The notes: generated by a model not told the origin, from the sequence alone. Positions 5,219 to 9,764 are shown, counted from the first letter of the stretch. The stretch: DNA of 17,329 nt from Candidatus Aenigmatarchaeota archaeon (GCA_043799675.1 JAZDNN010000016.1:1-17329); one strand, 5' to 3'. Numbers and translations are program-made.

Positions 5219-5302
5219 ACGGATCAATACCTTTTCTCCGTCACACTTTTGCAACGGGACGATATCACTTTAACTCGTCATGCTTTCGTTGGCGGAGAAA
5301 TA

Positions 5303-5701
5303 TCAGGCAGCCTTCGATGAGGACGTTTGCTTGAACATGGCCTCGAGCTTGCCCTGAAGCTCCTGGAGCTTCTCCTTTATCTTGCCTTCCTGCTTTTCCA
5401 GTGCATTCAGCCTCAGGTCGATCGTTTCCTTCCTTTCGCTGAGCTCCTTGTGCAGCTCGGCTTTCGTGCTTTTCACCAGAATCGGTCCGACGGCCTTGTA
5501 CACCTCTTCCCCGTCCTTCGCTTTCCCGAGCTCCTCCAGGGCCTTTTCCAGTTCGAGCTTCTGCATGGTCAGGGCCTCCTTCTGTATGGCTATCCCCTGG
5601 TACTGCTGCTGCAACGTCTGCATCTGCAGCAGCGATTGCTGCGCGTTAGGAGGAAGAGAAATCTCCCCGGGTTCGATGTGCCTGTGATCCTTTTCAGCCA
5701 T
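5303..5701 (-). CDS. pfdB: prefoldin subunit beta
   Basis: LPP..QQ.L.Q.Q.LQQQ coiled coil, ALEEL....D..VYKAVGPILVK hairpin and LEKQE..IKEKLQELQ; conserved position. Confidence 0.96.
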   Translation of the reverse strand: MAEKDHRHIEPGEISLPPNAQQSLLQMQTLQQQYQGIAIQKEALTMQKLELEKALEELGKAKDGEEVYKAVGPILVKSTKAELHKELSERKETIDLRLNALEKQEGKIKEKLQELQGKLEAMFKQTSSSKAA

Positions 5702-6484: not shown

Positions 6485-7273
6485 TCAGTGCCTGTGAAGC
6501 AGCTTGCGCAGTTCCTTCCCCTTGGCTATTGCGAGGTCCGCGGCTGTCAGGAGTTCGGACGTGCTGAACCAGCCCGTGCCGCCCTTCTGCATGGCGCAAA
6601 GATCGCCTGCCTCGGTGGTGGCTATGGTTACCCGTGCATCAGCCTCTTCGTCCTCGTCCATGTTCGGGTCGAGGAACAGCTTGGTGCCCATCTTCCATGT
6701 GGTCACTTCGATAGGCTTGTCGGTTACGGGCAACATCTCCCCCTTGGCATCCCCACGCTCCCTGATTATTGTTTTCTTTTCCATGTCCACCGCCGGGACC
6801 TTGGTATCAAGCAGGGCGGCCATCGCTGCCAGCGAAGCGGCGTCTATCAGGTTGCCGTCATGGTTCAGGATGTGGATGTCGATGTGGACGGTCCATACCA
6901 GCTCTCCGGGAGTGATGCAGAGCTTTGCCATGTCTATGGAGTGGCTCTCACGTATCCCCCTGTCAACCACCCTTGCGAGTTCCACGGCCGCTTCGCTTGG
7001 CGGACCGGGCTCGAAATCAGGGCTTGCCAGCGGAACAAGTTCGGCATCTACCATCAGTGTCCCTTCATTCGGTGAGTCGGGATAGGGTTCGTGCATTTCC
7101 ATCTTCACCCCGGCGACCACCAGCGTGCCGCCCATCTGAACACGGGCGCTGCCTTCAGCGGTCTTTATCACACCGTGCTCCACCTTCACATGGCGGAACT
7201 GCTCGAACTCGCGGCCGTCAGGCCTGTTTCCCTCGCTTATCATCTTTCTCACGTAGCTGTCCTTGTTCTTCAT
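6485..7273 (-). CDS. rrp42: exosome complex component Rrp42
   Basis: RPDGREFEQFR, AEGSARV..G.T.VVAGVK, PYPDSPNEG, FEPGPPSE.AVELARVVDRGIRES, NHDGNLIDA, AMQKGG. ATG 7273 is preferred; TTG 7279 is an alternative. Confidence 0.97.
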   Translation of the reverse strand: MKNKDSYVRKMISEGNRPDGREFEQFRHVKVEHGVIKTAEGSARVQMGGTLVVAGVKMEMHEPYPDSPNEGTLMVDAELVPLASPDFEPGPPSEAAVELARVVDRGIRESHSIDMAKLCITPGELVWTVHIDIHILNHDGNLIDAASLAAMAALLDTKVPAVDMEKKTIIRERGDAKGEMLPVTDKPIEVTTWKMGTKLFLDPNMDEDEEADARVTIATTEAGDLCAMQKGGTGWFSTSELLTAADLAIAKGKELRKLLHRH

Positions 7274-7338
7274 CAGCAAACAACTCCATTATCTTTGTCA
7301 CGTTTGCGGGATGCCGCAACAACTTCGTTGTTGCTCAT
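7273..7338 (-). CDS. candidate 21-aa bridging mini-ORF (MSNNEVVAASRKRDKDNGVVC)
   Basis: ATG overlaps the rrp41 stop (ATGA), TGA overlaps the rrp42 ATG (TGATG), and AGGAGGGA lies at 7344-7351. Confidence 0.4.
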   Translation of the reverse strand: MSNNEVVAASRKRDKDNGVVC

Positions 7339-8087
7339 TGCAATCCCTCCTCTTCCGGCGCGGAGACATACCTGTTCAGGAGCGCCTCCTTCTGTTTCTC
7401 GTGCACCTTGACTATCCCTTCGCGGGCAAGGTGAAGGATCTCTTCGAACTCCTTCCTGGTGACCACACCGTCCATCTGCAGCAGGACGAACCTGTCAGTG
7501 GTACCTATGGTCGCCACGGCGGTGTCCACGTCGCCGAAGTTGTCCTCGAGGCCGCCGACGTCCAGCACTATCTGGCCGTCAACCTTCCCGACGCTCACCG
7601 AGCTTATCAGGTGCTTCATCGGGATGCCTGCTTCCGCCAAGGCCATCGATGCGGCATTCACGGCCGCTATCCTCGTGCTCGCGTCCGCCTGGAGTATCTC
7701 CATGAACACGTCTATCGCGGTCTTGGGGAACTCGTCCAGCTGGAGGACGCTCGTGAGGGCCTCCTTGAGGACCTTGCCTATCTCCGTGGAGCGCCTGTTG
7801 TTTCCGGGCCTGCTCCGTTCCCAGGTGGCGAACGGTGCCATGAAGTACTTCGTCCTCAGGGTCGCCCTTACCGGGTCCTGCAATCCTTTCGGATGCATCT
7901 CATGCGGGCCGTAGACCGCAGTCAATGCCCACGTGTCCCCGAAGCGGAACACTGCCGAGCCAGGAGCGCGGCTGATTGCCCCCACCTCTGCGGTGATCGG
8001 CCTGAATTCCTTGAATCCGCGGCCGTCGAGCCTCTTGCCGTCGATTATCAGTTTTTCCGGTGCTCCCGCCTTTCCTTTTCCGCTCAT
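7335..8087 (-). CDS. rrp41: exosome complex exonuclease Rrp41
   Basis: RLDGRG..EFRPI, GSA....G.T...AVYGP.E.HPK, Y.MAPFAT.ER.RPG..RRSTEI, LQADASTR, catalytic-region EDNFGDVD and LLQMDG. Confidence 0.97.
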   Translation of the reverse strand: MSGKGKAGAPEKLIIDGKRLDGRGFKEFRPITAEVGAISRAPGSAVFRFGDTWALTAVYGPHEMHPKGLQDPVRATLRTKYFMAPFATWERSRPGNNRRSTEIGKVLKEALTSVLQLDEFPKTAIDVFMEILQADASTRIAAVNAASMALAEAGIPMKHLISSVSVGKVDGQIVLDVGGLEDNFGDVDTAVATIGTTDRFVLLQMDGVVTRKEFEEILHLAREGIVKVHEKQKEALLNRYVSAPEEEGLQ

Positions 8088-8852
8088 TTACATCTCCCTC
8101 CTTGGGCTGCTCTCGTAGCCTTCCTTCTGTTCGGACGGAAGCTCCGGTACGGTCTTGCCTTCCATCTCCTTGTCGAGGAAGCGGGTAATGCGGTCGGTGA
8201 GCCCCTCTATGTGCGCTTCCTGCTCTATCAGGAGGATGGCCTTTGCCGCGACCCCTTCGTGCTGTCCCCGCAGCCAGATCACGCCGTTCTGGCCGACGGT
8301 TATCTGGCAGCCGGTCTTGATTTTTATCAGCTCGACCATGCTGCCTTCCTTCCCTATTACGCGCGGGACCTTGTGCGGTGTTATCCTTACCAGCCTGCCG
8401 CCGATGAGCTTCTTTGCCCTGTAGTCGTTCATGGTCATCGAGACGTTCTTGGTCCTGCTGACGGCGAGTATCTTCGCGTAGATCACGTCGCCGATGTCGT
8501 AGTACACGCTGATGTCGGTCTTTGATGTGTCCACGAACTCCGGCACCGCCTCGCTGATGTTCAGCAGCGAATCGTACGGGCTGTTCAGTTCGCAAATCCA
8601 GAACGTTGTCGACATGTCGCTGACGGTAGCAATCACGCCGTCGCCCGGTCGCGGTATGTATGCGCCGGCCAGCGGCACCACGGATACCATCCTGTCCTTT
8701 ATCCTCACGAGCCCGAGCACCTTGCTCCGCAGCTCGCTGCCGACCCTGTAGCAACCCTGTCCGGGAAGCCATTCGAGTCCCCGGGACAGCATGTCGCCCG
8801 GGACCACTACGGTCCGTTCCTGCGCGAGCAGTTCGGACTTCACTTCATTCAT
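8088..8852 (-). CDS. rrp4: exosome complex RNA-binding protein Rrp4
   Basis: VVVPGD N-terminus, PLAGAYIPRPGD S1 domain, KVPRVIGKEGSM...ITVGQNGVIW KH domain, EAHIEGLTDRI. Its TAA abuts the rrp41 ATG. Confidence 0.97.
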   Translation of the reverse strand: MNEVKSELLAQERTVVVPGDMLSRGLEWLPGQGCYRVGSELRSKVLGLVRIKDRMVSVVPLAGAYIPRPGDGVIATVSDMSTTFWICELNSPYDSLLNISEAVPEFVDTSKTDISVYYDIGDVIYAKILAVSRTKNVSMTMNDYRAKKLIGGRLVRITPHKVPRVIGKEGSMVELIKIKTGCQITVGQNGVIWLRGQHEGVAAKAILLIEQEAHIEGLTDRITRFLDKEMEGKTVPELPSEQKEGYESSPRREM

Positions 8853-8989
8853 CAAACCACTCTCCTTTTATCATTCTGATTTTTCTTCCCAATGAAACGG
8901 GCAAATATGATTTTTTCCTCGTCATATTCCTGTGACGGAGCAATATGATTCATGCGTATTGGCTGCTGCAATATCATGACTGCTGCCAT
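8852..8989 (-). CDS. candidate 45-aa bridging mini-ORF (MAAVMILQQPIRMNHIAPSQEYDEEKIIFARFIGKKNQNDKRRVV)
   Basis: ATG is 1 nt after the SBDS TGA, with AGGAGGGA at 8995-9002. The frame is stop-free across the AT-rich spacer and ends in a TGATG overlap with the rrp4 ATG. Confidence 0.45.
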   Translation of the reverse strand: MAAVMILQQPIRMNHIAPSQEYDEEKIIFARFIGKKNQNDKRRVV

Positions 8990-8990
8990 A

Positions 8991-9695
8991 TCATTCCCTC
9001 CTGACCAGCTTGATGGTTGCCGAACCGCGCGTCAGCGAATTCATCTTGTCGGACAGCTCGGATTGCAATCCTGCAGGTATCTCAAGGACAGCCATGTAGC
9101 TCCCGTCGCCGCCCCATTCCTCCCTGCTCGGCGTGCCGAAGTTCCTCACTATACCGGAAGCCCTTGCGGCAAATTCCGTCGGAATCTTTATCGCAACGGT
9201 GGCCCTCTCGAAGCGGATGGGGATTATCGGCTGTATGGCCTTCAGTACGGCATCGATCTGTTCCTCGGCCCTTTTTTCTATGTCTATCCTCACCTTGGCC
9301 TGCTCGATGGCCCTCAGCACCCTGTCCGGCGGATGCGGGGCGCCGCTCCTCGGGTCAACGCCCTGCCTGCTTATCAGCGCGGCCACGGCCTTGGTCTTTT
9401 CGTCGAGCATGTGCTTCCTCTGCTCGGCCGTCAGTTGCACTTCGCCTTCCTTTATTATCCGCGTGGCGATCAGCTTGACGTCCGTGGTACCAAACGTCTT
9501 TCCGAGCTCCTCTCCCGACGGCCTCGACCCCTTATGCGCGTCCTCGAACACCTCGGGTGCGGCAAGAACATCATCTATTACGAGCTCCTTTCCGGTGCGG
9601 ACAGCCAAGGCGGCCACCGGGTCCACCAGAACCTCGAACTTCTTTCCCGCCTTCGTCAGCCTTGCAAGAACCGCCTTATCGACTGATATTGACAT
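8991..9695 (-). CDS. sdo1: ribosome maturation factor SBDS/Sdo1
   Basis: ISVDKAVLARL...GKKFEVLVDP, VFEDAHKG, FGTTD, GEVQLTAEQR, DPRSGAPHPPDR, PIRFE and IPAGLQ; SD GAGGTG at 9706-9711. Confidence 0.97.
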   Translation of the reverse strand: MSISVDKAVLARLTKAGKKFEVLVDPVAALAVRTGKELVIDDVLAAPEVFEDAHKGSRPSGEELGKTFGTTDVKLIATRIIKEGEVQLTAEQRKHMLDEKTKAVAALISRQGVDPRSGAPHPPDRVLRAIEQAKVRIDIEKRAEEQIDAVLKAIQPIIPIRFERATVAIKIPTEFAARASGIVRNFGTPSREEWGGDGSYMAVLEIPAGLQSELSDKMNSLTRGSATIKLVRRE

Positions 9696-9726
9696 TTGTA
9701 ATTCGCACCTCGCGTAACAGAGTTGT

Positions 9727-9739
9727 AATAAAATTTTTG
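9727..9739 (-). promoter_or_regulatory. internal BRE-TATA candidate for SBDS-rrp4-rrp41-rrp42
   Basis: CAAAAATTTTATT on the minus strand in the psmA-SBDS spacer. Confidence 0.4.
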
Positions 9740-9764
9740 AATATTATGTTCGCTGTCATGTCAT

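Follow-up and report, generated by a model that had tools for sequence, protein, structure and literature searches.

Mini-ORFs between archaeal exosome genes as likely bridge frames over hairpin-repeat insertions at gene junctions

In the stretch of DNA analysed here, called the window (17,329 nucleotides (nt) of a Candidatus Aenigmatarchaeota archaeon, GCA_043799675.1 JAZDNN010000016.1:1-17329), the genes for SBDS and the exosome subunits Rrp4, Rrp41 and Rrp42 follow one another on the minus strand. The spacers behind SBDS (spacer 1) and behind rrp41 (spacer 2) are each crossed by a short open reading frame (ORF), mini-ORF1 and mini-ORF2. Judging from related genomes and from repeats elsewhere in the same genome, we consider it rather likely that both mini-ORFs are bridge frames over short hairpin-repeat insertions, located on gene junctions that used to be tight, with coupled translation. 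The inserts probably pass ribosomes across, by analogy with the interspersed repetitive units of mycobacteria (MIRUs). The window is the entire contig C32 of an assembly of 749 kb in 45 contigs, 83% complete and with 54% G+C; the relatives of this genome are archaea of 0.3-2 Mb.

The original prediction, made from the sequence of the window, was right in all its coordinates: those of a recurring octamer, its spacing to the next ATG, the lengths of the two frames and the TGATG in which each of them ends. The octamer AGGAGGGA, a putative Shine-Dalgarno (SD) sequence, is found on the minus strand at the ends of SBDS (9002-8995), rrp4 (8102-8095) and rrp41 (7351-7344), located 5, 7 and 5 nt before the ATGs at 8989, 8087 and 7338. 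The mini-ORF1 ATG lies 1 nt past the SBDS stop; the rrp4 stop, TAA, abuts the rrp41 ATG at 8087; and the rrp41 stop, TGA (7337-7335), shares an ATGA with the mini-ORF2 ATG. The SDs of rrp4 (AGGAG, 8866-8862) and rrp42 (GGAG, 7287-7284) are contained inside the 3' ends of the mini-ORFs. Because rrp4 and rrp42 both open with ATGAA, read-through in another frame would stop at most 8 nt from either start.

Comparison with relatives, covering 29 loci in genomes belonging to the same order, suggests a tight ancestral arrangement. SBDS and rrp4 overlap or lie at most 10 nt apart in 19 of 26 relatives; the same is true for rrp4 and rrp41 in 24 of 29 and for rrp41 and rrp42 in 24 of 28. A typical junction has an SD (GGAGG or GGTGA) in the last codons, followed by the stop, 0-2 nt and the ATG. 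As the junctions of the relatives are tight, the 138-nt and 61-nt spacers of the window are derived. Three contigs of close relatives were obtained from a metagenome scan. L031 and L044 are of the same species (98-100% protein identity, 98-99.6% for L031); in L032, Rrp4, Rrp41 and Rrp42 are 90-94% identical to those of the window, and SBDS is 85% identical. L033 and L034 are the nearest outgroups. The amino-terminus of Rrp42 aligns to residue 1 of the Rrp42 proteins of relatives. Relatives' Rrp4 and Rrp42 start where those of the window do, making it unlikely that the mini-ORFs are in-frame amino-terminal extensions separated by an indel, a possibility the original prediction had left room for.

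The insertion between rrp41 and rrp42 is missing in L031 and L032, where the junction reads ...TTGCAATGAA... and rrp41 ends in an ATGA that also contains the ATG of rrp42. In contigs of the public runs X1 and X3, position 7269 is connected to 7335, with exactly 65 nt left out; among the contigs of four public runs (DNA) aligned to the window, none covers the insert, and a look-up of RNA runs listed none that contains this stretch. The mini-ORF2 ATG would thus be the working rrp42 start of the sister strains, cut off from its gene by a very recent insertion. Spacer 2 has a better fold than expected (z -2.96; 1 of 200 shuffles folds as well). In hairpin 1, comparison by eye with the C4 and C43 copies of the same repeat (GTGAAAAC/GTTTTCAC) reveals three changes that affect both members of a pair. 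A tandem duplication of the 3' end of rrp41 was considered as the source of the insert and rejected, the similarity being limited, by eye, to the last few bases. BLAST of the 65 nt against the genome returned short chance words only; the repeat family was found via a list of bridging peptides.

This family, family A, has four full copies and one partial copy in the genome. The full copies are located at rrp41-rrp42, L23-L2, L44e-S27e and GlmS-PGM (phosphoglucomutase), all four between co-directional genes and in sense orientation. The layout is an ATG, two hairpins, an internal SD and the end GTTTGCT(T)GATG, with the consensus ATGAGTGAAAAC-GAA-GTTTTCACGGCATC…GCAAAC-(loop with GGAG)-GTTTGCTGATG. 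The 3' arm of hairpin 2 is GTTTGC in all four full copies, and the 5' arm is GCAAAC in three and TCAAAC in the C43 copy. Relative to the upstream stop, the element ATG is at -4 to +10, and the frames of 21 (rrp41-rrp42), 16, 16 and 19 codons all end in TGATG, with both other frames closed in each copy, including that of mini-ORF2. Lengths differ by multiples of three only. When the ATG and TGATG ends are removed, the core of the window copy still matches the C4 copy better than any of 5000 shuffles (z 5.8) and the C43 copy better than all but 4 of 5000 (z 4.1).

Family B, of about 63 nt, has 18 hits in the genome, mostly at ribosomal-protein junctions (L24-S4e, L6-L32e, L19e-L18 and S19-L22 among them) and also upstream of S8, L31e, L35Ae, prefoldin and topoisomerase VI B. 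It also forms two hairpins, which are 95.8% paired; both sides have changed in 7 of the 12 pairs, and none of 500 shuffles reaches the covariation score. Sixteen of the 18 copies open with ATG, and for 13 of the 16 the stop of the frame (17-37 codons) falls within -4 to +4 nt of the start of the next long ORF. Copies read their second half in two different frames, and where one or two single nucleotides are deleted from the linker, as in three copies, the stop is found in the matching shifted frame, directly before the ATG. The orientation is sense to the downstream gene in 17 of 18 copies; at C43:21920 no downstream gene was called. Most copies have co-directional genes on both sides and sit immediately upstream of a start; those at C17:2177, C6:10351 and C6:10480 are exceptions in that they follow a gene on the opposite strand. 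Separately, we observe that elements of families A and B stud the ribosomal-protein operons at C43:8169-16510, C16:9108-10330, C16:43020-43339 and C4:48712-49240 (L054-L058).

Since only one of 41 other genomes of the order contains family B, it is an expansion rather than an old leader. That genome, G003, is of the closest genus and has two copies. In the first, a frame of 19 codons stops 2 nt short of an ATG; the second is closed after 4 codons and lies about 100 nt past the previous ORF, behind an A/T-rich box. At L24-S4e, 10 of 20 relatives have an ATGA overlap and 15 of 20 have the genes within 12 nt (two of these 15, at -44 and -41, are start-assignment artefacts); three relatives have other inserts of 98-140 nt. 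In two loci, L077 and L079, a palindromic repeat of another genus is located at this junction, in spacers of 140 and 98 nt. The same genus, which belongs to the same taxonomic family, has this repeat of its own in the exosome operon of L003 (G006), in spacers of 403 and 229 nt (oriented positions 1097-1500 and 2247-2476).

Spacer 1 has a different make-up, pieces of it matching other contigs of the same genome. It is 138 nt long in L031 and L044, 135 nt in L032 and 34 nt in L033 and L034; by eye, the SD region of the 34-nt spacer resembles the 3' end of spacer 1. The SBDS stop (8993-8991) falls within the first copy of a 17-nt tandem duplication, which supplies both this stop and the mini-ORF1 ATG, and L032 has one copy only. 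The SBDS protein ends in ...RRE, by eye two residues short of the ...REG(I/A/V) of relatives. The duplicated motif ATGATATKGCAGCAG has a 27-nt look-alike at C16:80585-80610, where it spans the stop of another gene, and a 20-nt look-alike at C29:9372-9391. The region around the latter (C29:9300-9470) is an approximately 85-nt tandem repeat that has the palindrome GGGAACCTAGGTTCCC, and its border has the motif ATGATATAGCAGCAGCCAAT, as in spacer 1.

Between the window and L031, the 3' half of spacer 1 has no differences in 65 positions and the 5' half 7 in 73, at a third-codon-position divergence of 3.5-11.7% in the flanking genes; an 18-nt block of the 3' half is identical in L032. Mini-ORF1 has 2 synonymous and 5 non-synonymous changes relative to L031, against 66 and 10 in the four flanking genes. 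The L032 spacer lacks the 17-nt duplication and has 14 additional nt further on, so that the middle is read in another frame; the 45-codon frame is still open and ends as ATGA on rrp4. Alignment thus indicates that in spacer 1 the frame and its stop/start ending are conserved and the peptide is not, and that the frame has been kept open in two lineages by different routes. The alignment of spacers across relatives, proposed in the original prediction as a check, came out positive here for the window and L032, and more strongly so for the repeat families that include mini-ORF2.

Part of spacer 1 is a hairpin unit of a third family. Family C has 31 copies by regular expression, compared with 1-5 in five shuffled genomes, and almost all of them are intergenic. 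The units are short imperfect palindromes, single or in small arrays and in both orientations. A second small array of family C is present in the window at 5230-5310 (minus strand), between convergent genes.

Published work on coupled genes, of which we cite parts, indicates why such inserts would be expected to matter. Overlaps are required for termination-reinitiation, and little coupling is left at a separation of about 20 nt (PMC10666635); reinitiation is often aided by an SD within the upstream gene (Huber et al. 2019, PMC6728339). With so little coupling left at that distance, an insert of 61 or 138 nt should uncouple rrp42 or rrp4. We propose that ribosomes finishing SBDS or rrp41 would re-initiate at the ATG on or beside the stop; for mini-ORF2, this site would be the one that works as rrp42 start in sister strains. 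The ribosomes would then traverse the insert, melt its hairpins, halt on TGATG and re-initiate on rrp4 or rrp42, aided by the SD carried by the insert. The filler frame would in this way restore an overlap at each end, as ATGA or a stop plus 1 nt upstream and as TGATG downstream. The peptides would have no function of their own, and copies lacking the relay property would be purged. We infer that bridged copies survive in essential operons because the insert is nearly invisible to coupled translation. Passage of ribosomes through the mini-ORFs, as the original prediction had it, is retained as the best available mechanism.

A broader proposal can be made tentatively, and we hold it to be possible, if a little short of even chances. 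Several active families of portable junction cassettes of 50-65 nt, each with a start, two hairpins, an SD and a stop, may land on stop/start overlaps in the most essential operons, those for ribosomal proteins, the exosome, prefoldin and topoisomerase VI, being kept only if coupling is rebuilt on both sides. Selection would then act on the frame and the position of the stop, not on the peptide.

A number of results weigh against the bridging explanation. Open frames are not by themselves surprising: the probability of the mini-ORF2 frame being open in composition-matched shuffles is 0.46 (dinucleotide) or 0.28 (mononucleotide), for mini-ORF1 0.085 or 0.035, and for the L032 frame 0.16 or 0.066. 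Given these values, openness alone is unremarkable for mini-ORF2, where it is expected by chance, and borderline for mini-ORF1. Nor are the open frames shared within one family independent, as the copies are related. The rrp4 and rrp42 SDs are borne by the inserts, meaning that de novo initiation could suffice. The core of the window copy matches the C35 copy of family A weakly (z 1.85, with 233 of 5000 shuffles as good), and a leave-one-out, sequence-only profile hidden Markov model of the three remaining copies gives it a non-significant E-value of 0.61. Family C units elsewhere are mostly antisense to their neighbours and unbridged. The case for mobility of the elements comes from a single polymorphism, the presence or absence of the 65 nt, and neither a Y1 transposase (PF01797) nor a TnpB zinc ribbon (PF07282) was found in the 83% complete genome. 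The 16S rRNA was not found in the assembly, a pattern search included, leaving the SDs named here unmatched to the organism's own rRNA.

The genome-wide control belongs to the same list. From home-made gene calls (823 genes), we listed ATG-led frames that bridge gaps between co-directional genes, counting those whose ATG is at -4 to +10 relative to the upstream stop. Gaps of 61-200 nt have 16 open frames compared with 9.8 expected (z 2.5, or 2.2 when SBDS-rrp4 and rrp41-rrp42 are removed), and gaps of 25-60 nt have 18 compared with 23.4 expected (z -1.9). The enrichment of bridging frames is thus mixed, and the gene calls on which it is based are crude. Several of the long bridging frames resemble genuine small membrane proteins. 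Two of the listed frames, of 42 and 47 codons at C3:10834-10965 and C16:29459-29602, have hydrophobic, membrane-like peptides and may be real small genes.

Some of these points are taken up by the most serious alternative, in which the repeats are real and the frames incidental. Initiation would occur afresh at the SDs of the inserts, the ATG and stop at their ends would be duplicated target sequence (ATGA or ATG), and open frames would persist by common descent and through stop-poor hairpins. The SDs of rrp4 and rrp42 are there to be used, the frame of mini-ORF2 is open in nearly half of the dinucleotide shuffles, gaps of 25-60 nt show no excess of open frames, reading in another frame would end at the ATGA starts of rrp4 and rrp42, and the copies within a family are kin. 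Against this, the stop has moved into the new frame beside the ATG in each of the three frame-shifted copies of family B, lengths in family A differ only by multiples of three, and spacer 1 is open through different frames in two lineages. The sense orientation of all four full family A copies and of 17 of 18 family B copies points the same way, as does the G003 copy that is closed after 4 codons, which lies off any coupled junction. We therefore regard incidental frames as rather unlikely.

The original prediction went further and saw a conserved relay from SBDS to Rrp42, in which the recurring SD octamer and the mini-ORFs set the ratios of the exosome subunits. Three identical octamers in 1.7 kb, out of 26 genome-wide, and the bridging of both long spacers do speak for it. 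However, 26 occurrences in 749 kb are what composition predicts (26.3 expected), and the octamer is not kept in close relatives: it is AGGGGGGA at the rrp41 end in both L031 and L032 and AAGAGGGA at the SBDS end in L032. Mini-ORF2 is missing from the sister strain and from L032, the junctions of relatives are tight, and the same element families are found in unrelated operons (ribosomal-protein, GlmS-PGM, topoisomerase VI). The description of the spacers as structured applies to spacer 2 and not to spacer 1 (z 0.02; 96 of 200 shuffles fold as well). A relay designed for exosome stoichiometry is left unsupported by these data and, in our estimate, is very unlikely.

If the inserts were bulge-helix-bulge (BHB) introns, their excision would restore the tight junction, and removing 65 nt indeed recreates the L031 junction exactly. 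In the same direction, ARAGORN, run on the whole genome, called only 10 tRNAs, 9 of them with introns. However, none of the five registers of a 65-nt excision gives a 4-bp central helix, as checked by hand, and the conserved fold consists of two separate hairpins. In a strict scan, the borders of both spacers and of eight other family A and B copies were free of BHB motifs; this scanner is weak, recovering 1-2 of 6 ARAGORN introns at a background of 0.58 candidates per 160 nt. We judge the intron explanation highly improbable.

Equally improbable is that the 65-nt insert is an assembly artefact of this contig. It is known from this assembly only, and the public-run contigs do not cover it, but the rrp41 and rrp42 sequence on either side is collinear, the frame and ends are kept as in other copies, and the insert belongs, as a well-formed copy, to one of this genome's repeat families and has compensatory hairpin changes of its own. 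Functional micropeptides, also considered in the original prediction, are barely credible despite an SD and ATG for each frame and the likeness of the family A peptides (MSENEVFTAS...), which follows from conserved hairpin DNA: neither mini-peptide has a match in Pfam, the changes in mini-ORF1 are mostly non-synonymous and those in its flanking genes mostly synonymous, and both the middle of spacer 1 in L032 and the second half of family B are read in other frames.

A search of Rfam over the whole window, on both strands and with E-values up to 1, gave no matches. As TGATGA at both ends resembles a C box, a C/D box small RNA was considered; we found no D box or terminal stem by eye, and the TGATGA motif is missing at rrp42 in L031 and L032, so this candidate was rejected.

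Long spacers are not confined to the window. Six junctions among the surveyed relatives have spacers of 20-200 nt, of which three are bridged and three (L011, L022 and L025) are not. Starting from an ATG on or beside the upstream stop, the frame is 10 codons long in L002, where it ends in GTGA, 18 codons in L007, and 9 codons in L017, where it ends 4 nt before the next ATG. The L007 frame (L007:721-815) consists of the two remaining ends of a methyltransferase ORF; in L006 a truncated form of this ORF (141 amino acids; L006:2926-3351, minus strand) is present between SBDS and rrp4. Decay of a methyltransferase gene appears to be a second route to a bridging mini-ORF. The same origin was considered for spacer 1 and rejected, as spacer 1 consists of repeats. 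Complete additional ORFs are present inside the exosome operon of L012 (rrp4-rrp41, 495 nt) and L014 (SBDS-rrp4, 568 nt), and in G012:C44:12486-13202 the Rrp41 match lies within an open frame of 474 residues, which may be an Rrp41-Rrp42 fusion.

The features of the window are collected in Table 1. Upstream of the operon, the spacer between psmA and SBDS (9696-9764) has a AAAAATTTTATTA box that looks promoter-like by eye, and a 27-codon frame whose ATG lies 5 nt past the psmA stop and which overshoots the SBDS ATG by 20 nt.

Table 1. Positions of genes, frames and repeat elements in the window.
Feature	Position	Strand	Comment
Proteasome alpha (psmA)	10478-9765	-	Pfam
SBDS gene	9695-8991	-	Pfam SBDS_N, SBDS_domain_II, SBDS_C
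17-nt tandem duplication	8994-8961	-	ATGATATGGCAGCAGTC (8994-8978), ATGATATTGCAGCAGCC (8977-8961)
Spacer 1	8990-8853	-	138 nt; genus-specific patchwork of interspersed repeats
Mini-ORF1	8989-8852	-	45 codons + TGA; TGATG (8854-8850) on rrp4 ATG (8852)
Family C hairpin unit	8946-8911	-	ATATTGCTCCGT-loop-GACGAGGAAAA
Conserved 3' half of spacer 1	8917-8853	-	degenerate repeat unit and rrp4 SD AGGAG (8866-8862)
rrp4 gene	8852-8088	-	Pfam ECR1_N_2, KH, S1
rrp41 gene	8087-7335	-	Pfam RNase_PH, RNase_PH_C
Mini-ORF2	7338-7273	-	21 codons + TGA; TGATG (7275-7271) on rrp42 ATG (7273)
Strain-specific insertion, family A element	7338-7274	-	65 nt; ATGA on both sides
Hairpin 1	7334-7316	-	GCAACAAC-GAA-GTTGTTGC
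Hairpin 2	7307-7276	-	GCAAAC...GTTTGC; rrp42 SD GGAG (7287-7284) in loop
rrp42 gene	7273-6485	-	Pfam RNase_PH, RNase_PH_C
L37ae	6382-6107	-	Pfam

The known system closest in behaviour is that of the MIRUs, which insert at start codons and have a coupled ORF (Supply et al. 1997, according to the review PMC12548453, consulted here in part). With its ORF coupled to the neighbouring gene at a -4 spacing, an inserted MIRU has little effect on expression, and 'ribosome delivery' by short ORFs is described more generally in the same review. The archaeal elements share with MIRUs that they are short interspersed repeats at start codons between operon genes, that strains differ, in one case here, in presence or absence, and that an ORF would be coupled to its neighbours, here by ATGA (-4) on the upstream side and TGATG (-1) on the downstream side. 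They differ in having an archaeal host and unrelated sequences, in this case two-hairpin units of about 50-65 nt, in carrying an SD for the downstream gene, and in rarely forming variable-number tandem arrays (confined to the copies on C10 and C16 and to the 17-nt duplication). By analogy, the junction repeats would work as MIRUs do, with no sequence kinship between the two; translation and coupling are carried over from the mycobacterial case.

Other systems resemble parts of the arrangement, again as described in the portions of the sources used here. In the coupling of overlapping genes (Huber et al. 2019, PMC6728339; 2023, PMC10666635), ATGA and TGATG overlaps and an SD in the 3' end of the upstream gene are also found, enriched among subunits of complexes; there, however, two real genes are coupled, whereas here a non-coding filler frame crosses a spacer of 61 or 138 nt. 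The bicistronic design (PMC12548453, references 75 and 78) also has a short leader cistron with an SD at its 3' end and a stop overlapping the next start, but it is an engineered device or a single upstream ORF, while the repeat described here is natural, present in many copies and probably also coupled upstream. Family C resembles the REP/BIME and REPIN elements (PMC2817692, PMC3116915) in consisting of short, imperfect, intergenic palindromes in 31 or more copies. It differs in its archaeal host and in that no RAYT/Y1 transposase was found in this 83% complete genome, and the parts of these two papers used here do not describe coupled ORFs for REPs. Our literature search returned the MIRU account and the REP and REPIN papers, and no archaeal junction repeat with relay frames.

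With coupling collapsing at a spacing of about 20 nt (PMC10666635, cited in part), any insert that separates two coupled genes of an essential operon should do harm. A filler frame that re-creates the stop/start overlap on both sides would explain how repeats come to be found where they should be least tolerated. For annotators, this gives a reason against calling such frames genes or such spacers promoters. Sister strains with and without the 65-nt insert between rrp41 and rrp42 constitute a natural experiment on the ratio in which the two subunits are expressed. If the broader proposal on junction cassettes is true, relay by a filler ORF would be a general rule by which compact archaeal genomes tolerate selfish repeats in coupled operons.

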